Positions 2,298 through 14,697 of a DNA stretch of 64,000 nt are shown piece after piece. The translations under genes and the position numbers were made by a program. The first letter of the stretch is position 1. Every line of letters starts with the position of its first letter. The stretch is from contig OY969801.1 in assembly GCA_963703225.1 (NCBI GenBank), forward strand, positions 393,701 to 457,700, given 5' to 3'. Under the pieces are notes generated by a model. That model saw only the letters and a program-made list of their open reading frames with translations, was not told the origin of the DNA and did not search any database. The DNA comes from Candidatus Eiseniibacteriota bacterium (GTDB taxonomy: Bacteria; Eisenbacteria; RBG-16-71-46; SZUA-252).

Positions 2298-3032
2298 CTA
2301 CTCGAGGGGAGTCCCGACGGCTCCGAGACGCGCCGGGACGAACCGCTCGCTCTTTTCGATCGCGGCCCGGTCCCCGAGCCCCGAGAGGTTGACGGCGAGG
2401 CCGAGCAGGTAGCCCGGAATGCCTCGCTCAGCCCCGCGGCCCTCGGGGCCGGGCGATTCTCCCGCCAACCAACTTTCGATCTCCCCCAAGTCCTCGACCG
2501 CCACGGGCCGGATCGTCACCCGAACCGAAACGTAGTAGGTGCCCGTGGAGTCGAGCGCGCTTTCCGCCGCGATCGGCACCCATCGCGACGTGAACAGGAG
2601 CGCCCGGAGCGAATCGAGATCGGGCGCGACGCGGCTCCTCGGCGGGTTCACGCCCGATCGGATCCGGAACGACTTGGCCCACTCGTCGTACACGACCTTG
2701 TGCTCGCTCTTGAGGGCGACCACGAGCTTGTCAAACCAGAGCGCGCGCCGCTTCCAGAGCCCCACCTCGAAGGAGACGGTCGCGGGCATCCCCTGCATCA
2801 GCGTCTCCTCGAGCTTGGGCGTGAACGGCTGCCCCACCTCGTAGCTCACGCAGATCGCCCCGGAGATCCGCTCGATCGGTCCGACCGTGAGGAGCATGTC
2901 GTTCGCCGCGCGGGCCGCCCCCGGCGGGAGCGAGGCCGTGAGGGCCATCGCCAGGAGCCCGGCGATGAGAGCCGGGGTCGAACATCCGCCCGCGGCGCGG
3001 CGACGGTGAGGGACACGGCGGGCGCGGGCCAT
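2298..3032 (-). CDS. DUF4390-like exported protein
   Basis: Signal-like LIAGLLAMALTASLP; LEETLMQGMPATVSFEVGLWKRRALWFDKLV...VVYDEWAKSF pattern; downstream of an ntrYX-like pair. Start is approximate. Confidence 0.7.
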   Translation of the reverse strand: MARARRVPHRRRAAGGCSTPALIAGLLAMALTASLPPGAARAANDMLLTVGPIERISGAICVSYEVGQPFTPKLEETLMQGMPATVSFEVGLWKRRALWFDKLVVALKSEHKVVYDEWAKSFRIRSGVNPPRSRVAPDLDSLRALLFTSRWVPIAAESALDSTGTYYVSVRVTIRPVAVEDLGEIESWLAGESPGPEGRGAERGIPGYLLGLAVNLSGLGDRAAIEKSERFVPARLGAVGTPLE

Positions 3033-3040
3033 CGCGGCTC

Positions 3041-4316
3041 CTAGAAGGATCCGCCGAGGCGGACCCCGACGAGGAAGGGAGCGTCGGAGTCCTGAAGGCT
3101 CCGCGCGACCGTGATCGCGATCGGTCCCGGGCCGAGCCTGATGCCGGCGCCGCCGTCGAGCGCGAAACGCTGGTGATCGATCTCGCCGCGGCCGAACCAA
3201 GCCGCGCCCCAATCCAGGAATCCAAAGACCCAGACGTTCTTCCTGGCGAGCAGGTAGTACTCGGCGTTGCCGAGAAGGAACTGGTCGCCGTCGAATTTCT
3301 TGTACTCGCGCCCGCGGAGCGTCCCGATCCCGCCCAGGTGCCAGATCTTCTGCGCGGGGAGGTCGCCGTCGACCGTGGTCCCGCCGATCAGCCGCGCGCG
3401 GGCCTCCTGCCGCGGCGAGAGCCTCACCTTGGTGTGGGCCGCGCCGCGGATCCGTCCGTATTCCGAATCCCCGTCGATCGGCGAGCCGGCCCGCTCGTAG
3501 GTGATCTCGCCGTTGGTGCCGCCGTCGGCGGGAATGGCCACGGGCCCGATCCGAGCCCCTGCTTCCACGACGCCTTGCCGCCCGTCGTCGATGGCGGGGT
3601 TGGCGCGGAAGTGGTCCTCCTTCCCAAACACGGAGAAGCTCACCTCGGTGTCGAGCGAGCGGACGTCCTCCACCGAGGCTCCGACCCGGATCGCGAAGTC
3701 GCGGCCCGGCTCCCACTGCCCGAACGCTTTCCAGCCCTCGGCCTCGTAGTGATCCCGATAGTCGGTCCGGGCGAAGAGCGCGAAGAACGTGTTCTCGGTC
3801 TCGCCGACGATCCACCCATCTTCGGTCGCCGTGCGTCGGTAGAGGGCGCCCCCGACGCGGAAGCGGGCGGGATCGCCGATCGGCGCCTCGAAGCCGACGT
3901 CGTAGAGGAAGCGATCGCGCGAGAAGGCATAGCCGGCGGAAAGGTAGAGAAGCGGCCTCGGCTCCCGCTCGCTCTTGACCGCCACTCCCAGAAGGAGCGC
4001 GGGGCCGTCCACGCGGTTGTACCGGAAGTTTATGAGCGGGGTGAGGTGGGCCGCTTCAGGAAGACCGGCGGAGAGCGTCTCCCACTCCGCGGGTCGAAAG
4101 GCCGGTGGCGGGGCCGCCTCCGATACGGCGCGGACGCTGTCGGGCGGCGCAGGAGTGCGGCGCGCCGACGCTGTCGGGGGGTGGAGGCGTGGCGGCGGCG
4201 CCGACACTATCGGACGGGGCGTCGGCTCTCGCGCCGGCGGCCAAGAAAAGGCCAGCCAGGAGCGCGGCGCGGAGAAGCGCTGCGCTACGAGCCGGCGGTC
4301 TCGCGGGCCAGCCCAT
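3041..4316 (-). CDS. Omp85/BamA-TamA-like outer-membrane beta-barrel protein (frameshift near 4150)
   Basis: C-terminal LGGIGTLRGREYKKFDGDQFLLGNAEY, FLDWG and terminal Phe. The signal peptide (AALLRAALLAGLFLAAGARA) is in another frame (ORF 4056..4316), so a 1-nt indel is implied. Confidence 0.7.
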
Positions 4317-5652
4317 ACCGCTTGATCTTCCGGTGGAGATAGCCGCGGTCCATGCCCAGTCGCCGCGAAGCCTCCGTCACGTTCCACTGACACTGCTTCA
4401 GCGTCGCTAGGATTGTGTCTCGCTCGGCCTTCTCGCGGGCGACCTTGATTTCGCTGGGGGGTCCTTCGTCCGCGTTCGCCGGGAGCGCCTCCTCCACGTC
4501 GGCCGCGCCGACGGTTTCGCCGTCGGTCATGATCAGGATCCGCTCGATCAGGTTTCGAAGCTCGCGGATGTTCCCGGGCCACCCGTAGCCGGTGAGGCGC
4601 TCGATCGCATCCCGTGTGAACGCGCGGGGCGGCCGGCCGTGCTCCGACGACAGCCGGGCCCCGAAGTGCGCGACCAGGAGCGGGATGTCCTCCCGCCTCT
4701 GCCGGAGCGGCGGGAGGTGGATCGGGACCACGTTGAGGCGGTAGAAGAGGTCTTCCCGGAAGCGTCCCGCCTGGATTTCCTCCTGGAGGTCCTTGTTGGT
4801 CGCGGCGACGATCCTCGCGTCGACCGAGAGGGTCCGCGTGGCGCCGAGCCGCTCGATCTCTCCGGTCTCGATCGCGCGGAGAAACTTGGCCTGCGTCTCG
4901 AGGCTCATGTCGCCCACCTCGTCGAGGAAGAGCGTGCCGCCGTCGGCCGCCTCCAGCCGTCCGCGCTTCATCTGGGTCGCCCCGGTGAACGCTCCCTTCT
5001 CGTACCCGAAGAGCTCGCTCTCGACCAGATCCTTGGGCAGCGCGGCGCAATTCAATTTTTCGAACGGGCCACGCGCCCGCGCGCTGCCCTTGTGGATCGC
5101 GCGGGCGACCAGCTCCTTCCCGGTTCCGCTCTCCCCGGTCACGAGCACCTTCGCGTCGGTCTTGGCCACCTTCGCGATCTCGGCGCGGATCTGGTCCAGG
5201 CTGGCGCTCTTCCCCACCATCTCGTCCGACGCGCCGGCCATCGCGCGGAGCCGCTCGTTCTCGCGCTGGAGCGCCCGGATCTCCAGCGCGCGCTCCACCG
5301 TGACCTGGAGCCGGTCCGGCCCAAACGGTTTCTCGACGAAATCGGCGGCGCCCAACCGGATCGCCTTCACCGCCTCCTCGATCGATCCGTGGCCCGACAT
5401 CACCACGACCGGGAGGTCGGGGTTGGCCGCCTTGGCCAACTCCAATAGGGCGAGACCGTCCTTGCCAGGGAGTTTGAGATCGGTGAGGAGGAGGTCGACC
5501 CGCTGCTGCGCGAGGATCCGCTCGGCCTCCTCCGCGCTGACCGCCGTGAGCGGCTCGTAGTGGCGCTTCAAGCTCGCGGCTGTTTCGAGCAACACCGAGG
5601 GCTCATCGTCGACGATGAGGATGCGGAGCTTGCCGCCGCCCGCCGCGCTCAC
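4285..5652 (-). CDS. Sigma54-dependent response regulator (NtrX/AtoC-like: REC, AAA+, Fis HTH)
   Basis: ILIVDDE, DLKLP, GESGTGKE, GAFTGA, LFLDEV, FREDLFYRLNV, C-terminal HTH. Confidence 0.95.
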   Translation of the reverse strand: MSAAGGGKLRILIVDDEPSVLLETAASLKRHYEPLTAVSAEEAERILAQQRVDLLLTDLKLPGKDGLALLELAKAANPDLPVVVMSGHGSIEEAVKAIRLGAADFVEKPFGPDRLQVTVERALEIRALQRENERLRAMAGASDEMVGKSASLDQIRAEIAKVAKTDAKVLVTGESGTGKELVARAIHKGSARARGPFEKLNCAALPKDLVESELFGYEKGAFTGATQMKRGRLEAADGGTLFLDEVGDMSLETQAKFLRAIETGEIERLGATRTLSVDARIVAATNKDLQEEIQAGRFREDLFYRLNVVPIHLPPLRQRREDIPLLVAHFGARLSSEHGRPPRAFTRDAIERLTGYGWPGNIRELRNLIERILIMTDGETVGAADVEEALPANADEGPPSEIKVAREKAERDTILATLKQCQWNVTEASRRLGMDRGYLHRKIKRYGLARETAGS

Positions 5653-7222
5653 GGCGATGTCTCCTCCACGGCCGCCGAGGAGGGGATGGTGAGCCAGGCC
5701 CGGGTTCCGACGCCTGGACTCGACTCGATCCCGAATCGCCCTCCATGCTGCTCCACAATCCGCTGGACGAGCGTGAGGCCGAGGCCGCTTCCGGTCGATT
5801 TGGTGGTGAACCCAGGGTGGGTCGCCCGCTCGAGCGTCGCCGCGTCCATGCCCGGCCCTGTGTCCTCGACTTCCAGCGTGACGCCCTCGCCGTCCTCGGG
5901 TGCGGCGCGACGAACCCGGAGCGTGACCGTGCCCCGATCGCCCATCACCTCGACCGCGTTCTTGATCAGATTCACGAGCACACGCTGGATTTGACCCGCA
6001 TCGGCCCAGGCTAAGGGAACGGGACGCTCCACCTCAACGCGGAATTCGATCGAGGAGGTGCCGCCGTAGAGCTTGGCGGCGTCCGAGGCAAGCTCGGCGA
6101 GGTCGCAGGGCGGCGAATCGCGGCTCCGGGAGCTGCGCCACCGCCGAGAACGCCGTGGCAAACTCCTGGAGCGAGTGAACCTCGCGCAGGATCGCCTCCG
6201 CGTTCTCCGCCACCACCTCCGCGCGCGGCGCTTCCGGGCGTCGCGCCTCATCCTTGAGACGCTGCAGCGCGAACTGAATCGGCGTGAGCGGATTGCGAAT
6301 TTCGTGCGCCACGGCGCGCGCCACCTCGCGCCACGCCGCGAGGCGCTCCGCGCGCAAGAGCGCTCGACGGGATCCCTGGAGCTCCTCGACCATTCGGTTG
6401 AACGAGGTCGGCGAGAAAGCGCACTTCGCTCGTTCCCGACGGCTTCACGCGATGCGCGAGGTCTCCCAAGGACGCCCGCGTCATGCCGGCACGGAGCGCC
6501 ACGATCGGCTTTGCGATCCCTCTCGCGACGAGGTAGGCAAGGCCGAAGCTGACCGCGCCCAGAATCAGGCTCCAGAGCGCCGCGAAAATCCAGAGGCTCC
6601 GCTGCGAGAGCCACGTGTAGACGCCGAGCCGCCGATACATCGAGAGATTCTTCTGGAGGGCCACGATCTCCGACGATATCTCGGGGTCGAGCTGGTAGCC
6701 CGCGAGGATGACTCGATCCCTGTCGAGCGACGCGACCCCGCTCACCTGCCGCGGCGCGTCATCTCCGGAAACGAGGCCGCCGTGCTCCAGAGCGGCGAGA
6801 ATCGAGGCGCGCTCGGGCTGGGGAAGGGTGATGCGCGGACCCAGCCGGGCGCCAAAGATGCGCTCCGCGCCCTCGGCCCCATCGCGAATCCGATAGAGCG
6901 CGATGTAGTCGAGCCCGCGGCTCCGCGCTTCGTCGCGGAGGTGGCGCTCGAGGTTGGCGCTTTGCTCCGGGGCTAGGAGGCGCACGGTGGCCGGGTCGAG
7001 CGCCATGACCTCGGCGTGCTGGCGGGCGTCGCTCGCCAACCGCTCGATGCCGCCCCGGATCACCTCGAGCGACTGGCCGAGCGCGCGCTCGGTCTCCGGG
7101 TTCTTGAGCGCCGCCAGGCTCCGCGCGAGGTACTGCGTGACGTAGAACGTGAGGCCGAGCGAGGGGATGAGCGCGACGAGGAAGAAGAGGGCGAGGAGCC
7201 GCCCCCGGAGGGTGCCGAACAT
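5649..7222 (-). CDS. NtrY-like HAMP sensor histidine kinase, split by two frameshifts (near 6410 and 6110)
   Basis: TM/HAMP in ORF 6248..7222; H-box AWREVARAVAHEIRNPLTPIQ in ORF 6034..6393; HATPase NLIKNA/EDTGPG/GSGLGL in ORF 5649..6614. Confidence 0.85.
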
Positions 7223-8442: not shown

Positions 8443-9417
8443 CTAACTTCCTCGGAGTCCACAGTACGGATCGGTGCCGTGGATATCGGCACCAACTCGG
8501 TCCGGCTCCTCGTCGCTGACGTCGACGAGAGGGAGCGCCTCCGCACCGCCCACCGCATGGGGGAGATCTCCCGTCTCGGCGAGGGCCTCGATCGCACCGG
8601 TGTGATCGACAAGGCCGCCGCCGCCCGCACCCTCGAATGTCTGGAGCGATTCGTCCACGAAGCGGAGTACAGCGGCGCGAGCCGGATCCGCGTCGCCGGC
8701 ACGAACGCCTTCCGGGTCGCGACCAATGGCCAGGAGGTGGCGGAGTCCTTCGCGGAGCGGATCGGGTACCCAGTTGAGATCATCTCCGGAGAAGAAGAGG
8801 CTCGCCTCGTCTTTCTGGCGGTATTGAGCGGGCTCGGGACCGCGCGCGGCCCATCGGTCGTGGTCGATATCGGGGGTGGAAGCACCGAGATCATCAGCGG
8901 CGAGGGAGAGACAGGTACCCAGGTCATCAGCCTGGAGCTCGGCTGCGTCCGTCTTACCGAGCGACTGGTTCGGAGCGATCCCCCTGCCGAATCGGAGCTT
9001 GAAGCGGTCCGACGCCATGTCCTCGACGTCTTCGCCGAGAAGCTGCGTTCCTTCGAGCTGAACGGCGTCGAGCGGGCGATCGGGGTGGGAGGCACCGTGA
9101 CCGCATTCGGCGCCCTCGACCTCGGGCTCGTCAAGTACGACCCCTCCCGGATCGAGAACCACCACCTCACGCGCGAGTGTATCTCGAATATCGGCAAACA
9201 ATTATGTTCGATCCCCCTATCCCAGAGGCGGGATCTCGCCGGCGTAAGCCGGGGCCGCGCCGACATCATCCCGGCCGGAGCGATCATCCTCTGCGAATTC
9301 GTGGACCGGTTTGCTGTGAACGGCGTCTACGTGTCGACGAGGGGGCTTCGCTACGGGCTGGTGCTCAGCGAGGCCAGAAAGGCGACCCGCCCGGCCGGGC
9401 AGGCCGCCCGCGCATAG
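8443..9417 (+). CDS. ppx: Ppx/GppA family exopolyphosphatase
   Basis: AVDIGTNSVRL, ISGEEEARL, VDIGGGSTE, GRADII, GLRYG. True start unclear: no in-frame canonical start lies close to the domain, and the ORF-caller start overlaps rlmN. Confidence 0.88.
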   Translation, partial: LTSSESTVRIGAVDIGTNSVRLLVADVDERERLRTAHRMGEISRLGEGLDRTGVIDKAAAARTLECLERFVHEAEYSGASRIRVAGTNAFRVATNGQEVAESFAERIGYPVEIISGEEEARLVFLAVLSGLGTARGPSVVVDIGGGSTEIISGEGETGTQVISLELGCVRLTERLVRSDPPAESELEAVRRHVLDVFAEKLRSFELNGVERAIGVGGTVTAFGALDLGLVKYDPSRIENHHLTRECISNIGKQLCSIPLSQRRDLAGVSRGRADIIPAGAIILCEFVDRFAVNGVYVSTRGLRYGLVLSEARKATRPAGQAARA

Positions 9418-9447
9418 CACTCCCGGCACCCGCCGGCGACAATTGCC

Positions 9448-9476
9448 TTGACGCATCCGCAGAGCGAAGCTATCCT
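9448..9476 (+). promoter_or_regulatory. Sigma70-type promoter for the small secreted ORF / TPR activator
   Basis: TTGACG-17 nt-TATCCT in the intergenic region. Confidence 0.65.
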
Positions 9477-9487
9477 AGCTAGTTAGA

Positions 9488-9628
9488 GGCAGTGTTCGTC
9501 AACGGGCGCCTGCTCCCGCTCGGGAGCATCCCTCTCGGACCGCGGTATCGCAGCCGCGGCGACGACGCCTACTGACGAACTGCCGGCAACCACCAAGCGA
9601 AGCGACTGGAGCGCCGGGTGTCGCTTCG
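9488..9628 (+). ncRNA. Structured 5' leader (candidate cis-regulatory RNA)
   Basis: GGCA..GTTCGTCA (9488-9501) pairs with TGACGAAC-TGCC (9573-9584), enclosing hairpins TGCTCCC/GGGAGCA and CCGCGG/CCGCGG. Hairpin CGAAGCGAC/GTCGCTTCG (9598-9628) lies just before RBS TAAGGAG. Confidence 0.4.
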
Positions 9629-9644
9629 TGTAAGGAGCAAGGGA

Positions 9645-9947
9645 ATGAGGGTCCAGGTTCCACGCCGCATCATTGGTTTGGGCATCCTCGTCGCCTTCCT
9701 CTGTCTGACTCCGGCTCTTTCCTCGCCAGTTTTTGCCAGGCCCTATCACTGGGAAGACAGAGACTCGCCAGATCCGCCCCTCCCAAAGGGTGACGGTGAT
9801 GGAACGGTCGTGAAGGCTGCGGGCAACTCAAGTGCCCCGGCTCTCAGCACGACGGCGCCGAATGGCACGCGGACGTCGGTCACGAGCATGGTGAAGAGCG
9901 CTCTCCTCATGGTGCGTCTGGGCTACGGCTTGCGCTGGTACCTGTAG
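9645..9947 (+). CDS. Small secreted protein / candidate signalling-peptide precursor (100 aa)
   Basis: RBS TAAGGAG at 9631; Sec signal MRVQVPRRIIGLGILVAFLCLTPALSSPVFA; acidic Pro/Gly core DRDSPDPPLPKGDGDG; low-complexity linker; C-terminal amphipathic/aromatic helix. Confidence 0.75.
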   Translation: MRVQVPRRIIGLGILVAFLCLTPALSSPVFARPYHWEDRDSPDPPLPKGDGDGTVVKAAGNSSAPALSTTAPNGTRTSVTSMVKSALLMVRLGYGLRWYL

Positions 9948-10027
9948 CAGGTACGCAGCGCCCGTAATACGCGACACGGTCCCGGACCGTGCCGCGCGCC
10001 GTGGTATCGCAGTCGTTGAGGGCCGGT

Positions 10028-13000
10028 ATGGACGGACTTGTCCCGAAAGATCGATCGGACATTCCGCACCGAACCGTTGGGGCTCCCGGTCCCCGTGCAT
10101 CATTTGACGCGGGCGCGTACGGCGAGCACAAGGCTCAGGAGCTCGGGGATCTCTATTTCGCGGCGGACAACTACGTCGTCGCGTTGGAGTACTACCGCCG
10201 CGCTCTAGACGCGGGTCCGAGGGCCGATACCCCCGAGAACCGGGAGGACCTTCTCCGGATCGGGACCCAGATCGTCGAGTGCCTCAGGCATCGCGGCGAT
10301 CTCGCCGACGCGGTCGACTCGCTCCACGATCTCCATCGGCGCCTCCGTCCGCACGTAACTCGCGAGCAGGCGGGGCGTCTTTCGGCCAGCCTCGCGCTTC
10401 TGCTCTTCGAGCGGGGCCGCTACCGGCCCGCGCAGCGGGCGGCCACCCTCGCCTACCGGCTCCTCCGCGACACCACGCTCAACCTCGACATCGGTCGCAC
10501 CGAGATGATCTTCGGGGTCATCGCGCTCCGAACGGGTGACTGGAACGCGGCCCGCGAGTACTTCGAGAGCGCCATCGCGACCTACCGGCGCGCGGGCTAC
10601 GACGCCGGGATGGCAACGGCCTACAACAGCCTCGGCCTCCTCCACAAGAATCACTGCCGCTTCAAGGAGGCGGCCCGGTTCCTGGAGCAGGCCCTTCGGA
10701 TCGGCGAGCGCTCCGGTCTCTTTCACGATTCGGCCACCTACGTCCACAACCTCGGCATCGTCCACGAGAAGATGGGCGATTGGGATGTCGCGGAGGATCA
10801 CTACCGGCGCGGCCTTCAGATGAATACCGAGGTCGGAAATCCCGTCGGGAAGGCGAGGGCGCTCTTCTGCCTCGGAAACCTCCGCCGCAAGCGCCGCGAT
10901 TTCTCGACGGCCGAGAACCTACTTCGCCAGGCCCTCGCGCTCTCTGTGGAGCGCGGCTTCCCGCGGGAGACGGTCCTTTCCCGCGAGGGGTTGGGCGACC
11001 TCTACGCCGACCGCGACATGCTCCAAGAGGCCCGCGCCGAGTACGAAACGGGGCTGGCCATGACCGATCAGTTTGCCCCCGACTCAGACCTGACGGTCGA
11101 GCTGGTCCGGCGGCTCGGGGACGCGCAGCTTCGAATGGGCGAGATCGAGCCGGCGAGAAGGAGCGGCGAGCGAGCGCTCGCGGTCGCGCGGCGACTGGGC
11201 GATCGGATCGAAGAAGCTTGCTCGCTCCGTCTTCTGGGTCTCGCGGCCGCGGAGGCAGGGGAGTTTCCCGCGGCGCAAGAGCGTCTCGGGGAGGCGAGCC
11301 GGATTCTCCTCGCGATCGGCAAGCGCTATGAGCTGGCGCGTCTCAACATGGGCGCCGGGCTCGCCTGGCGCCGCCGGGCGCGAAAGGGGAAGTCGCGTGC
11401 CATCCTGGACGAGTCGGTTGGCTACCTGCGCCGCGCGGTGGCGGCGTACGAGAGCCTCGCGCTCCCCGCGCTGACCGCGCGCGCCCTCCTCGAGCTTTCG
11501 AGGAGCGAGCTCATGCGGGGCCTGGTCGACGAGGCCGTGCTCCACCTCGACCACGCCACGTCCATCCTCTCCCCCGAGGACGATCCTGCCCTCGCGCGCG
11601 AGATCGAGGAGTTCCGGACCGAGATCGAGAAAGGGCTGATCGAGGGGACCTCCGCCCAGAGCAACGAGTTTGCAGCGTTCGAGGAAGTCCGCAGCGTGCT
11701 GCGGGGCGGCGACGCCGAGTTGGCCGTGCAGGAGGTGTTGTCGGTGACCGCGCGCAGGGTATCGGCGGCGCGGGGCTGCGTGGCGGCACCGGCGGTCCAC
11801 GGCGGGATCGAGGTTGTCGCCTCGGTCGGCATGTCCTTCCGCGTGGCGCAGGACCTTCTGAGCGAGATGGAGCGCCGCATCGGCTCGGCCCGCCTGGCAT
11901 CGGCGCCGGTCGTGAGCAGCCGCGCGGGAGCCGACGGGCGATTCCGCGACATGCCGGGGATGACCCATTTGAGCCCTAGGACCAGCATCGCCATCATGCC
12001 GCTCTCGCTGCCCTCCGGACTTCCCGGGTACCTCTACCTCGATCGTCCCGAGGAGGGGCCGCTGGGCCCGTTCAAACAGCGGGAGATCAACTTGATCGCG
12101 GTGCTCGCGAATCACGTCGCGGTGGCCATCCTCGAGCTGCAAAGGCAGCGCCTGGCGCGCGAGAACACGGCGCTTCGGGGCCGTCTCCTTGGCTCCGCCA
12201 ACGATCATGGCATCGTGACGAGAAGCCCGGAGCTGCTCGAGATCCTCTCGCTCCTGGAGCGGGTCGGGCCGAGCGACGCCACCATCCTGATCGAGGGCGA
12301 GACGGGGAGCGGCAAGGGGCTCCTCGCGCGCGCGATCCACGCCTCCAGCGCCCGCGCCACCAAGCCGCTGATTCAGGTCAACTGCGCCGCGCTGCCCGAG
12401 CAGCTCCTCGAGAGCGAGCTTTTTGGGCACGTGCAGGGCGCCTTTACCGGAGCGGTGCGCGAGAAGGTCGGTCTTTTCGTGGAGGCCAGCGGCGGCACGC
12501 TCTTCCTGGACGAGGTCGACAAGACCACGATCACGATCCAAGGAAAGCTTCTCCAAGTCCTCGACAACCGCGAGGTGCGGCCGGTCGGAGGGAACAAATC
12601 GACCAAGGTGGACGTCCGCGTGGTCTGCGCGACGAACGTCAATCTCAAGGCAAAGATCGCGCGCGGCGAGTTCCTCGAGGATCTCTACTACCGGCTCAAC
12701 GACATCTGCTTCCGGGTCCCGCCGCTTCGGGAGCGGCCGGAAGATGTGCCGCCCCTCGTCGAGCACTACAGCCGCCGGTTCGCGGCCGAGATGGGCAAGG
12801 AAATCCGGGGCGTGGATCAGGACCTGATCGCGGTCCTCGCCGGGCTCCATTGGCGGGGCAACGTTCGCGAGCTGGAAAAGGTCGTGAAGCGCCTTGTGGT
12901 CATGGCGAATGACGGCGATACGCTTTCGATGGAGCTTCTGCCGCGCGACCTCCTCAAGCCAGAGAACGAAAACGGCGACTCCCCGTCCACGTTGAGGGCC

Positions 13001-13165
13001 GAGGTTGCCAAGGTGGAGCGGCGGCTCATCTCACAGGCGCTGGAGCGCCACAACTGGAACAAGCTCCAGGCCGCCAAGGAGCTCTCGCTCTCCTACCCGA
13101 CCCTCCTTCAGAAGATCAAGCTCTTCCGCCTCGACCGAAGGCTTCAACCCCGGCAAAAGGCTTAA
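10028..13165 (+). CDS. TPR-GAF-AAA+ sigma54-dependent transcriptional activator (bEBP) with Fis-type HTH
   Basis: About 550 aa of TPR repeats (AYNSLGLLH, VHNLGIVH, LFCLGNLR), GAF-like region (GYLYLD...IAVLANHVAVAI), GETGSGK, GAFTGA, LFLDEV, YRLND, HTH NKLQAAKELSLSYPTL. Confidence 0.92.
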   Translation: MDGLVPKDRSDIPHRTVGAPGPRASFDAGAYGEHKAQELGDLYFAADNYVVALEYYRRALDAGPRADTPENREDLLRIGTQIVECLRHRGDLADAVDSLHDLHRRLRPHVTREQAGRLSASLALLLFERGRYRPAQRAATLAYRLLRDTTLNLDIGRTEMIFGVIALRTGDWNAAREYFESAIATYRRAGYDAGMATAYNSLGLLHKNHCRFKEAARFLEQALRIGERSGLFHDSATYVHNLGIVHEKMGDWDVAEDHYRRGLQMNTEVGNPVGKARALFCLGNLRRKRRDFSTAENLLRQALALSVERGFPRETVLSREGLGDLYADRDMLQEARAEYETGLAMTDQFAPDSDLTVELVRRLGDAQLRMGEIEPARRSGERALAVARRLGDRIEEACSLRLLGLAAAEAGEFPAAQERLGEASRILLAIGKRYELARLNMGAGLAWRRRARKGKSRAILDESVGYLRRAVAAYESLALPALTARALLELSRSELMRGLVDEAVLHLDHATSILSPEDDPALAREIEEFRTEIEKGLIEGTSAQSNEFAAFEEVRSVLRGGDAELAVQEVLSVTARRVSAARGCVAAPAVHGGIEVVASVGMSFRVAQDLLSEMERRIGSARLASAPVVSSRAGADGRFRDMPGMTHLSPRTSIAIMPLSLPSGLPGYLYLDRPEEGPLGPFKQREINLIAVLANHVAVAILELQRQRLARENTALRGRLLGSANDHGIVTRSPELLEILSLLERVGPSDATILIEGETGSGKGLLARAIHASSARATKPLIQVNCAALPEQLLESELFGHVQGAFTGAVREKVGLFVEASGGTLFLDEVDKTTITIQGKLLQVLDNREVRPVGGNKSTKVDVRVVCATNVNLKAKIARGEFLEDLYYRLNDICFRVPPLRERPEDVPPLVEHYSRRFAAEMGKEIRGVDQDLIAVLAGLHWRGNVRELEKVVKRLVVMANDGDTLSMELLPRDLLKPENENGDSPSTLRAEVAKVERRLISQALERHNWNKLQAAKELSLSYPTLLQKIKLFRLDRRLQPRQKA

Positions 13166-13193
13166 AAGTAGCTATTAAGTTTGTTAATAGTCG

Positions 13194-13218
13194 TAAGTGG
13201 TTGGGGTTTGGCCGCTTA
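13194..13218. promoter_or_regulatory. Imperfect palindrome TAAGTGG-N11-CCGCTTA (candidate IHF or activator site)
   Basis: Inverted repeat in an AT-rich patch upstream of a sigma54 promoter. Confidence 0.4.
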
Positions 13219-13310
13219 TCCACCCTCTTCAATTTCGTTATCAATTATCAATCCAAAATCACGCAGCTTCGCCCCTCCCGCATCACGCCAAGCCGCCTTC
13301 GGATCGACCT

Positions 13311-13340
13311 TGTAAGATGCTGATTTTAATGAGTGTTACA
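13311..13340. promoter_or_regulatory. TGTAA-N20-TTACA palindrome (candidate IHF or UAS site)
   Basis: TGTAAGATGCTGATTTTAATGAGTGTTACA about 40 nt upstream of the -24 element. Confidence 0.45.
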
Positions 13341-13376
13341 ACCTCATTACGATCAATATTGAGGCGGCCCGAAACG

Positions 13377-13392
13377 TGGCATGCGAGATGCA
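13377..13392 (+). promoter_or_regulatory. Sigma54 (-24/-12) promoter 1
   Basis: TGGCATGCGAGATGCA = GG-N10-GC with TGGCA at -24. Confidence 0.7.
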
Positions 13393-13402
13393 ATGAACAA
13401 GT

Positions 13403-13540
13403 CAGCGGAGGGGGGGACCTCCAAAGAGCCCGCAGGCCTCGCCAGCGTTAGGCCATGGGTTAGCCGCCAATTCGAGCACCGGCCTCGGAAAACGCGGTGT
13501 AACCTGAAGAGAGCTGGCAAGGCCGGGGCTCAATTTTTTG
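13403..13540 (+). ncRNA. Candidate sigma54-dependent small RNA (about 135 nt)
   Basis: Starts about 12 nt after the -12 GC. 5' hairpin GGAGG/CCTCC, then a long interrupted stem: GAGCCC/GGGCTC, GGCCT/AGGCC, GCCAGC/GCTGGC, GGTT/AACC, GCACCG/CGGTGT. Followed directly by TTTTTT; no credible ORF. Confidence 0.55.
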
Positions 13541-13774
13541 CCTCGTTCGTTCCTTCCGTAGATCCCTCGATTTCTCGGTCCACCACCCGCCTCTCGTTCT
13601 CGCTCATACGACCCGCCTCTTGTTCTCGCTCACTCCACCCGGCTTTTCCGGATGACTCGCCGCTCTCCCTCGGAGCGCGCTCGCGCCTCCACCGCCAGCC
13701 CCACCGCTGTAGCGCGCCAGTCACAGTGTCCCAGATACGACGCCAAATCCCCACTCCAGGGCCATCGACACCCA

Positions 13775-13832: not shown

Positions 13833-13847
13833 TGGCATGACGCTTGC
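13833..13847 (+). promoter_or_regulatory. Sigma54 (-24/-12) promoter 2
   Basis: TGGCATGACGCTTGC, near-consensus TGGCACG-N4-TTGC, upstream of RBS GGAGG and the GTG at 13930. Confidence 0.8.
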
Positions 13848-13929
13848 GGTTCGAGTCTGTGGCGGCTGGGGAATCGCCTGCCGCGACAGACAAGATCGGA
13901 AGCGGACAAACCGGAAGGAGGTGGGCTAC

Positions 13930-14697
13930 GTGATCCGGATGTGGGGTAGAGTGCTCGCCGTCGCGGGCCTGCTCGGGGCCGCGGGATGCCATGACAACAA
14001 CACGATCGTCGCGCCTGATCCGCCGCCATTCACGGTGGAGGGCGTCCGGAGCGTCACGGGTGACGGGCTGGTCACCGTTTCCTGGCGCGGCAATCAGGAG
14101 ACCGACATTGACTACTACAAGGTCTATCGCAATTTCGCGCCGACCGGCACGTTCACGCTGATCGGGACGACAGCCGATATTCGCTACGAGGACCGGAACG
14201 TGGCCAACGGGACCACCTATTTCTACGCGGTGGCCGCGGTCGATCGGGCAGGCCAGGAGAGCCCGGACCTGAGCTATGAGAACGTATTCGACACACCTCG
14301 TCCCGAGGGCGTCGACGTCACGCTCTCGAACGCCGACGTCAATGACGTCGTCAGCGGATGGGATTTCTCAGCCTACACTCGCCGAGCCTCGGCCGACCCC
14401 AACACGGACATCTTCTATGCCGCGTCGGGCGGGCACTTCCTCGTCTACACGCCGGTCGACACGCGCATCCAGGACGCCGGATTCGTCGCCCTCCGGGACG
14501 TCGACTACGCTCCACCCTCCGGTTGGTCCGCCGACGGCGTGGTGGAGGCGATTCCGGGACACAGCTACATCGTGCTGACGCGAGACAATCACTACGCCAA
14601 ATTCGAGGTGGTCGCTCGAGACGACGCCGGCATGAACATGGACTGGGCCTATCAGATCGACGTCGACAATCCCGAGCTCGCGAGGCCGCTCCCATGA
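13930..14697 (+). CDS. Lipoprotein with fibronectin type III-like domain
   Basis: RBS GAAGGAGG; lipobox LLGAAGC; GDGLVTVSW...YKVYR...NGTTYFYAVAAVD...ES. Confidence 0.85.
   Translation: MIRMWGRVLAVAGLLGAAGCHDNNTIVAPDPPPFTVEGVRSVTGDGLVTVSWRGNQETDIDYYKVYRNFAPTGTFTLIGTTADIRYEDRNVANGTTYFYAVAAVDRAGQESPDLSYENVFDTPRPEGVDVTLSNADVNDVVSGWDFSAYTRRASADPNTDIFYAASGGHFLVYTPVDTRIQDAGFVALRDVDYAPPSGWSADGVVEAIPGHSYIVLTRDNHYAKFEVVARDDAGMNMDWAYQIDVDNPELARPLP

Follow-up and report, generated by a model that had tools for sequence, protein, structure and literature searches.

The open reading frame (ORF) at positions 9645–9947 of the 64,000-nucleotide stretch analysed here (the window), taken from contig OY969801.1 of a Candidatus Eiseniibacteriota (Eisenbacteria) genome, encodes a 100-residue protein and is followed on the same, forward strand by the gene for a sigma-54-dependent transcription activator at 10028–13165. 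The activator combines a tetratricopeptide repeat (TPR) sensor region with a GAF domain, a sigma-54 AAA+ domain and a helix-turn-helix (HTH) domain. Comparison of this locus with related loci indicated that the small protein and the activator are very probably a cognate functional pair, and the two-gene cassette looks like an undescribed signal-and-receptor unit that recurs several times per genome across this uncultured phylum. On the sequence comparisons given below, the signal/sensor cassette appears to be ancient in Candidatus Eisenbacteria and to have since been duplicated.

The gene order in the family of the source genome is rlmN (opposite strand), ppx, small gene and TPR-GAF sigma-54 activator. 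The ppx gene lies upstream of the small gene in 29/29 family loci, and the activator lies downstream in 27 of the 29, the other two stopping at a contig edge. Of the 206 genomes of the phylum, 199 contain homologues, approximately 1030–1070 residues long, found with the TPR part of the activator (residues 1–565); the tally includes one unpublished genome (G073). Synteny around the locus extends over approximately 20 kb throughout the phylum, and the linkage of orthologous copies is therefore uninformative by itself, so that the argument for a joint function rests on paralogous cassettes.

Three further TPR sigma-54 activators are encoded in the source genome and all three have their own upstream ORF beginning with a signal peptide, giving four small-protein/activator cassettes in total. 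The products of these upstream ORFs have a Pro/Asp-rich centre and a hydrophobic tail, and contain the segments EMGDPDDTGNQ, YPDGDPTADDQ and ASSPDETLNPPPNPPP. Five other genomes supplied seven paralogous TPR sigma-54 activators, each again preceded by a signal-peptide ORF (7/7), with the motif GDPD in five of the partners, ADPD in one and ADPN in one. The downstream genes differ between paralogous cassettes, with ferredoxin, Nuo and ZIP genes at one and S41 peptidase and TetR genes at another. The pair itself was duplicated and not its neighbourhood, which forms the main argument for the small protein and the activator working together. Four other TPR proteins, among them one protein kinase and one CHAT protein, showed no sigma-54 domain and have no upstream signal-peptide ORF.

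The orthologous loci of other families gave a consistent picture. Twenty of these loci keep the order rlmN, ppx, a gap, activator, fn3 and DUF4384, and in 20/20 the gap contains an ORF of approximately 90–140 residues with a signal peptide-like start on the strand of the activator. The encoded proteins have a basic N-terminus and hydrophobic stretch, a central G[DE]xD motif and a terminal hydrophobic or amphipathic tail; examples of the motif are TSGEPDVGQTP, SPFGDSDQY and PTGDPDEIA, while DGDPDQYA occurs twice in one protein. Position and features are kept in these ORFs but not sequence, and the profile built on the family of the source genome misses them. A preliminary description of the locus, made from the DNA letters, had proposed that small ORFs upstream of related TPR activators be aligned and searched for a GD-x-D core. 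The comparison bore this out, with a signal-peptide ORF at 30/30 activators outside the family alignment, mostly carrying G[DE]xD.

The frequency of the motif was compared with expected fractions obtained from 716,106 residues of the long ORFs of the source genome. G[DE]PD was present in 21/32 cassette proteins (expected fraction 0.2%), G[DE].D in 27/32 (3.8%) and the wider pattern [GA][DE][PGSNA][DN] in 30/32 (3.7%), although the 32 sequences are related, so that these statistics overstate their independence. Two of the 32 proteins lack the motif. None of 2000 composition-preserving shuffles of the mature parts matched the observed counts. The core of the family studied here, GDGDGxVVK, is the local version of a phylum-wide G[DE]PD core. 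A separate observation concerns a 526-residue TPR-only protein (G139:C1:1089798-1093754) in which no sigma-54 domain was found at E ≤ 1e-8 and which has an upstream signal-peptide ORF containing EMGEPDVPP; the pairing of small protein and TPR protein may be older or wider than the fusion to sigma-54 activators.

The translation of the small ORF agreed letter for letter with that of the preliminary description. The strong ribosome binding site (RBS) reported there is AAGGAG at 9632–9637, ahead of an ATG at 9645, and the frame ends with TAG at 9945–9947. The layout that had been described, a signal peptide ending in VFA followed by RPYHWEDRDSPDPPLPKGDGDGTVVK, a Ser/Thr/Ala/Pro linker and SMVKSALLMVRLGYGLRWYL, was recovered in full. 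Residues 1–31 (9645–9737, MRVQVPRR...SSPVFA) contain M1, R2 and R8, which are invariant in the alignment of 36 family members, and L19 and A31, which are nearly so. A +3 n-region, a 17-residue h-region, a nearly invariant Ala at position −1 and an invariant Pro at position +2 indicate that these residues are a Sec-type signal peptide, as read from sequence features.

Mature residues 32–57 correspond to RPYHWEDRDSPDPPLPKGDGDGTVVK and consist of two parts. The first is an acidic, Pro-rich segment, RPYHWEDRDSPDPPLPK (9738–9788), in which P33 is invariant across the family alignments and W36 and P44 are almost so. The second is the core GDGDGTVVK (residues 49–57, 9789–9815), whose residues G49, D50, D52, G53 and K57 do not vary among 36 sequences, V55 being nearly invariant; in one genus the core is written GDNDG[VI]VLK. 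The variable linker (residues 58–80, 9816–9884) has no conserved columns and differs in length between members. The Trp/Arg-rich C-terminal tail SMVKSALLMVRLGYGLRWYL (residues 81–100, with the stop codon 9885–9947) begins with the nearly invariant S81 and has the consensus S..R.YL.L.RLGYG.RW, with the last 2–5 residues variable across the family.

The structure of the small protein was predicted with AlphaFold2 from the 36-sequence alignment, giving a mean predicted local distance difference test score (pLDDT) of 61.1. The only elements in the model are a helix at residues 7–25 in the signal peptide and a helix of moderate confidence at residues 79–91, and the C-terminal helix presents a broad hydrophobic face together with Arg and Trp. 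Residues 53–78 have a pLDDT below 50, as does the linker as a whole. No match was obtained in Pfam or NCBIfam at E ≤ 0.1, and together with the model this upholds the earlier remark that the protein has no room for a folded domain.

At the mature N-terminus (9738–9758) the family members also share the motif P-x-x-W-[ED]-D (P33, W36, D38), which is nearly invariant among them but not general in other Eisenbacteria families. This motif resembles the W-acidic peptides held by the TPRs of kinesin light chains. Several known signals were considered for the small protein and rejected. A lipobox was rejected by eye, as the nearly invariant Cys20 is preceded by Phe-, Leu- or Val-Leu (AFLC, AVLC, ALLC) and is absent at this position in one genus. 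A Tat motif was rejected because the first Arg of the apparent RR is Gly or Gln in two genera. The C-terminal endings differ too much for an outer-membrane beta-signal (RWYL, RWYW, SRL, RWGGF, SWSR, RWTP, FWLR, RWYR), and the mature part is also too short for a beta-barrel. A PEP-CTERM, GlyGly-CTERM, LPXTG or type IX secretion (T9SS CTD) sorting signal gave no NCBIfam or Pfam match at E ≤ 0.1, and the layout is not that of a sorting signal, the core lying approximately 45 residues before the tail and not immediately ahead of a transmembrane helix and basic cluster.

Searches for relatives defined a compact family. A word-seeded search of 5.8 billion proteins gave 11 other members with 51–78% identity, and a profile search of 1.84 billion representatives gave 25 matches with E ≤ 5.3e-12. 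The family has a sharp edge, since no profile match was weaker than this value. Within the 206 phylum genomes the profile located the small gene in 37 of the 40 other genomes of its own family, distributed over four genera, and as a single copy in the source genome, where the next matches had E > 0.1. Three matches in another family were attributed to chance, with E values of 0.007–0.009 and two of them lying within long frames. No remote homologue was found beyond the family or Eisenbacteria 'hypothetical protein' clusters in Pfam, NCBIfam, the 1.84-billion profile search and the ESM Atlas.

The start, frame and stop of the small gene are kept in 29 loci while the nucleotides of the linker diverge. 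Invariant residues use two to four synonymous codons each (GGT, GGG, GGC and GGA for G49; GAC and GAT for D50 and D52), and selection therefore acts on the protein. Conservation is uneven along the family alignments, as had been predicted, with the core and both ends kept and the linker free. This uneven conservation and the ORFs found upstream of all 30 additional activators support both the link to the TPR activators and the special status of the core.

The partner activator was matched by the Pfam models TPR_12, TPR_MalT, GAF, Sigma54_activat, AAA_lid_14 and HTH_8. The TPR models (TPR_12, TPR_MalT and others) span residues ~50–560, with TPR_MalT above its cut-off. The best natural matches to a 39-domain TPR profile were the peptide-binding proteins KLC1/2 and LGN/Pins, and further matches were AfsR and the TPR transcriptional regulator of entry 5dbk. 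The 5dbk match (E 1.5e-9) ranks far below generic TPR proteins and is the sole regulator of the RRNPP kind, a class compared below, among the PDB matches. The TPR grooves of kinesin light chains and LGN/Pins hold extended peptides. The profile of the activator thus fits a peptide- or protein-binding sensor, as judged by sequence similarity, yet it is generic for TPRs.

We tentatively favour a reading in which the small protein, whole or in part, is recognised by the TPR domain of the activator, although we would rate it somewhat below an even chance. It is favoured because the simplest role for a short invariant motif within a disordered protein that is exported is that of a recognition site, and the TPR activator is the constant partner. 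The neighbouring TPR-GAF sigma-54 activator would thus have an intrinsically disordered, exported partner in the small protein, whose core would act as a short linear motif bound by the TPR domain in either the whole protein or a fragment. The activator would adjust its output, which comprises an envelope/protease operon and a small RNA transcribed with sigma-54, to the state of the small protein in terms of its production, export or processing. Three routes could be envisaged: the core peptide could be released by proteolysis and re-imported, as in RRNPP systems; the precursor could be bound before export, with export relieving or triggering the activator, as in the FlgM or type III chaperone-substrate switches; or the cytoplasmic remnant left after cleavage of the unusually conserved signal peptide could be the species that is read.

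Several points weigh against such a reading, besides the phylum-wide synteny, the relatedness of the cassette sequences and the two proteins lacking the motif. No membrane segment was seen in the activator translation, which separates the activator topologically from a small protein with an export signal. The source genome was found to contain no OPT, POT/PTR2 or SbmA/BacA transporter and no Opp operon. Its single family-5 (Opp/Dpp-type, SBP_bac_5) solute-binding gene lies beside a hybrid histidine kinase and has no adjoining permeases, and its only two BPD-type permease pairs are both located elsewhere. No evidence of a processing site, mature peptide or protease link was found for the small protein, and the pro-peptide proposed in the preliminary description, with the GDGDG-containing segment as mature signal and the tail as membrane anchor or processing determinant, is a possible reading. 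The neighbourhood of the family-5 gene (G000:C1:244000-256000, outside the window) encodes a kinase with sCache-HAMP-PAS-HisKA-HATPase-REC domains, two M24 peptidases and a second M6 peptidase, and may be a periplasmic peptide-sensing arrangement.

Two sigma-54 promoters, both conserved, were located downstream of the activator. The first, P1 (TGGCATGCGAGATGCA, 13377–13392, forward strand), is predicted to drive a small RNA of ~135 nt that is found across the phylum; together they occupy 13377–13541, with a 5' hairpin GGAGGGGGGGACCTCC at 13407–13422 and a terminator T-run at 13534–13539. The second, P2 (TGGCATGACGCTTGCG, 13833–13848), lies ~80 nt ahead of a gene row that starts with an fn3 lipoprotein. 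A strict pattern was matched by P2 in 19/19 and by P1 in 18/19 sequences. The small-RNA hairpin GGAGGGGGGGACCTCC is invariant and is unique in the 3.1-Mb genome, and the predicted small RNA gave no match to Rfam. A P1-type promoter and hairpin were found downstream of the activator in 18/20 loci of other families. Public stretches with the RNA signature of the cassette, defined as a sigma-54 promoter followed by GGAGGGGGG..ACCTCC, number at least 120. Most have Eisenbacteria in their titles and many are titled just 'bacterium' or 'uncultured bacterium'; among the matches listed, at least six bear other phylum labels, given here as deposited.

The gene row after P2 (13833–16004 and on to ~20287) encodes the fn3 lipoprotein (GTG start at 13930), a DUF4384 protein, an M6 (immune inhibitor A-like) peptidase and a UPF0164/FadL-like outer-membrane protein, and this envelope/protease row is likely to be the regulon of the activator. 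An A+T-rich stretch at 13166–13350, between the activator stop codon and P1, in which the family alignment shows TATAAA..ATTTAATA-like blocks to be conserved, may be an enhancer or DNA-bending site. On the other strand, upstream of the small gene, positions 2298–7222 of the window encode a sigma-54 response regulator and a HAMP kinase, which form an NtrC-type two-component pair, together with an Omp85/DUF5686-like and a DUF4390 protein. Synteny with the locus throughout the family was seen for the genes of the kinase, the response regulator and the Omp85-like protein, on synteny queries run without DUF4390.

The nature of these downstream genes bears on an alternative in which the small protein is an independent envelope protein. 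It would be an abundant disordered tether with its amphipathic tail on the membrane and its acidic motif bound to a periplasmic partner, cation or protease, and it would be merely co-transcribed with an activator that senses some other input through its TPR and GAF domains. The export signal, strong promoter, disorder, S/T-rich linker and C-terminal helix with a hydrophobic face and Arg/Trp residues are all in keeping with such a role, as are the sigma-54-driven envelope genes (fn3 lipoprotein, DUF4384, M6 peptidase and FadL/UPF0164-like porin) and the failure to find an importer in the source genome. The pairing with a TPR activator nevertheless survives in paralogous cassettes despite their different downstream genes, the hydrophobic moments of the tails are uneven (0.16–1.81 at 100 degrees), and no lipobox, beta-signal or known sorting domain fits. 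We consider this alternative rather unlikely.

A sigma-70-type promoter, CTTGACG-N17-TATCCT, is located at 9447–9476 on the forward strand and is the only promoter-like site in 9300–10200 (one found, 0.1 expected); its CTTGAC and TAT..T elements are invariant in the 29-locus alignment. A candidate sigma-54 promoter ahead of the small gene (GGCAA-N5-AAGC, ~9586–9601) was rejected, being unconserved in the alignment, and a scan of the window with the sigma-54 consensus was at background, with 18 matches against 13.9 expected.

The 5' leader (9484–9644, ~160 nt) is predicted to fold into a closing helix around two hairpins, forming a three-way junction, followed by a third hairpin and the AAGGAG sequence. 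The invariant elements are UCCCUC (9529–9534) in the junction and GCCGG (9613–9617) in the loop of the third hairpin. The fold has a minimum free energy of −74.4 kcal/mol (z = −1.99). In the consensus of 29 sequences 80.9% of cells were paired, compared with 36–48% when the partners were slid, 33 of the 44 pairs vary on both sides, and none of 500 shuffles attained the observed score. The leader gave no family match in Rfam, and the RNA could be the target of a small RNA or a protein, or could itself be a sensor.

The G-loop of the small RNA shows complementarity both to a C-rich leader motif (UCCCUC/GUCCCC) and to GTCCCG at codons 5–6 of the activator. The C-rich motif is invariant in the family. 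GTCCCC(C), which has a background frequency of 0.11 per 200 nt, occurs in 11/20 orthologous leaders from elsewhere and in 0/8 paralogue leaders of other genomes. RNAduplex pairing of the G-loop with the four leaders of the source genome gave ordinary energies, matched by 11–39% of random 200-nt windows. Feedback of the small RNA on the leader is a lead and not a finding, because the energies are at background and the motif is absent from all eight paralogue leaders.

A 227-letter contig from the single RNA-library run found covers 9689–9915 with one differing letter, and a more distant piece from the same library matches the leader and extends upstream of the predicted start. These contigs are at most a hint of transcription of the small gene, as the library may contain DNA and contigs cannot rank genes, and uncovered parts are uninformative.

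The 80-nt spacer between the two genes (9948–10027, forward strand) contains a G+C-rich hairpin and the RBS of the activator, GAGGGCCGG (10018–10026). Co-transcription of the small gene and the activator is likely because the spacer has no T-run terminator and the RBS is invariant, with GAGGGCCGG-N1-2-ATGGA kept, or nearly so, in 27 loci. A repeat of GGTATCGCAG at ~9546 and ~10006 was attributed to chance, as it is not kept in relatives.

The arrangement of the two genes could also be that of a cis-acting export-monitoring leader of the SecM/VemP/MifM type. Ribosomes that stall, or terminate slowly, where the small ORF ends would then set the level of activator translation from the shared mRNA, and the product would have no function after export. 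The signal peptide would engage the Sec machinery while the Trp/Arg-rich tail was still in the ribosome tunnel. This would account for the N-terminal signal peptide, the conserved Trp/Arg-rich segment up to the stop codon, the fast evolution of the middle region and the position of the activator 80 nt further on with no intervening terminator, in the same order in every cassette. A single-sequence fold also pairs GAGGGCCGG of the activator with bases just past the stop codon of the small ORF; this fold is no better than those of shuffled sequences (z = 0.76), and RNAalifold over the stop codon, spacer and RBS of 27 loci, on a poor alignment, gave no conserved structure that would hide the RBS, with two pairs of which none is compensatory. 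Translational arrest further does not account for the G[DE]PD-type motif, which is invariant and lies ~50 residues before the C-terminus. The last 2–5 residues, which would be closest to the peptidyl-transferase centre, are the variable ones, and the tails of other families share no motif. Monitoring substrates are known to govern Sec/YidC genes and are not known to govern transcription factors. On balance an export-monitoring leader is improbable here.

Finally, that the frame is a chance ORF in G+C-rich DNA, the conserved element being RNA or DNA, was suggested by the many long spurious ORFs of such a genome and by the conserved RNA of the leader, but is effectively refuted: codons of invariant residues change synonymously, 29 loci hold the start, frame and stop despite linker divergence, and the strong Shine-Dalgarno sequence is conserved.

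The reading of genetically encoded peptide signals by cytoplasmic TPR receptors is generally seen as a trait of Bacillota, and the inputs usually assigned to sigma-54 activators are phosphorylation, small ligands or partner proteins. The cassette offers a testable case of peptide sensing or export-state sensing by TPR sigma-54 activators. The short synthetic targets (core and flanks), the defined sensor and the two defined sigma-54 promoters would allow it to be rebuilt in a laboratory host although the phylum is uncultured. The analysis also indicates that small-protein families invisible to homology search are traceable by position and a four-residue motif. No published description of such a cassette was found, including for Eisenbacteria with sigma-54 or tetratricopeptide, as judged mostly from abstracts.

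The closest comparison is with the RRNPP(A) pairs (Rap-Phr, NprR-NprX, PlcR-PapR, PrgX, Rgg-SHP and AimR-AimP), which are peptide quorum-sensing systems of Bacillota, their phages and plasmids; peptide systems are placed in Bacillota by PMC10075063. The Eisenbacteria cassette resembles these pairs in that a small gene for an exported, putative pro-peptide adjoins the gene for a cytoplasmic receptor with a TPR-type sensor, in that several paralogous pairs occur per genome, and in that the peptide evolves fast around a short kept core. It differs in several respects. The small protein has no sequence relationship to RRNPP peptides, is 100 residues long, has a central core and a conserved tail, and belongs to a diderm host phylum. 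The output domains are a sigma-54 AAA+ module (Sigma54_activat, AAA_lid_14 and HTH_8) with GAF rather than the RRNPP HTH or phosphatase, and no Opp-type import system is evident in the source genome. The cassette falls outside the RRNPP class by receptor homology and by output domain, and peptide import lacks support.

SecM, VemP and MifM are export-monitoring arrest peptides, and have in common with the cassette a small signal-peptide ORF directly before the regulated gene on one transcript and a conserved C-terminal segment; here the downstream gene encodes a transcription activator, no conserved structure sequestering the Shine-Dalgarno sequence was found in a poor alignment of the region between the two genes, and the motif in the middle of the protein is not accounted for. 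In the FlgM/sigma-28 system and the type III TPR chaperones (IpgC-MxiE, SicA-InvF) a protein destined for export first binds a cytoplasmic regulator or TPR protein, and the state of export thereby sets transcription. In the cassette a cytoplasmic TPR regulator would likewise have an exported partner, which carries a Sec-type signal in place of dedicated flagellar or type III export.

In the LuxO-Qrr system of Vibrio, as with other activator-adjacent sigma-54 small RNAs, a sigma-54 activator has a neighbouring small RNA gene with a sigma-54 promoter; LuxO itself is a response regulator that receives its input from membrane kinases. The activator described here is similarly adjoined by a small RNA with a sigma-54 promoter, with feedback on its own operon possible, whereas its inputs are TPR and GAF domains, the small RNA has no Rfam match and the pairing energies are at background. 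A more speculative proposal, which we regard as doubtful, is that the diderm Eisenbacteria run parallel peptide channels, in each of which a fragment carrying G[DE]PD from a Sec-exported pro-protein would be read by its own TPR sigma-54 activator, and that the orthologous channel would add a sigma-54-dependent small RNA feeding back on the leader of the signal gene. If this were true, the RRNPP logic of Gram-positive bacteria would have been rebuilt from unrelated parts and combined with an RNA layer like that of LuxO/Qrr.

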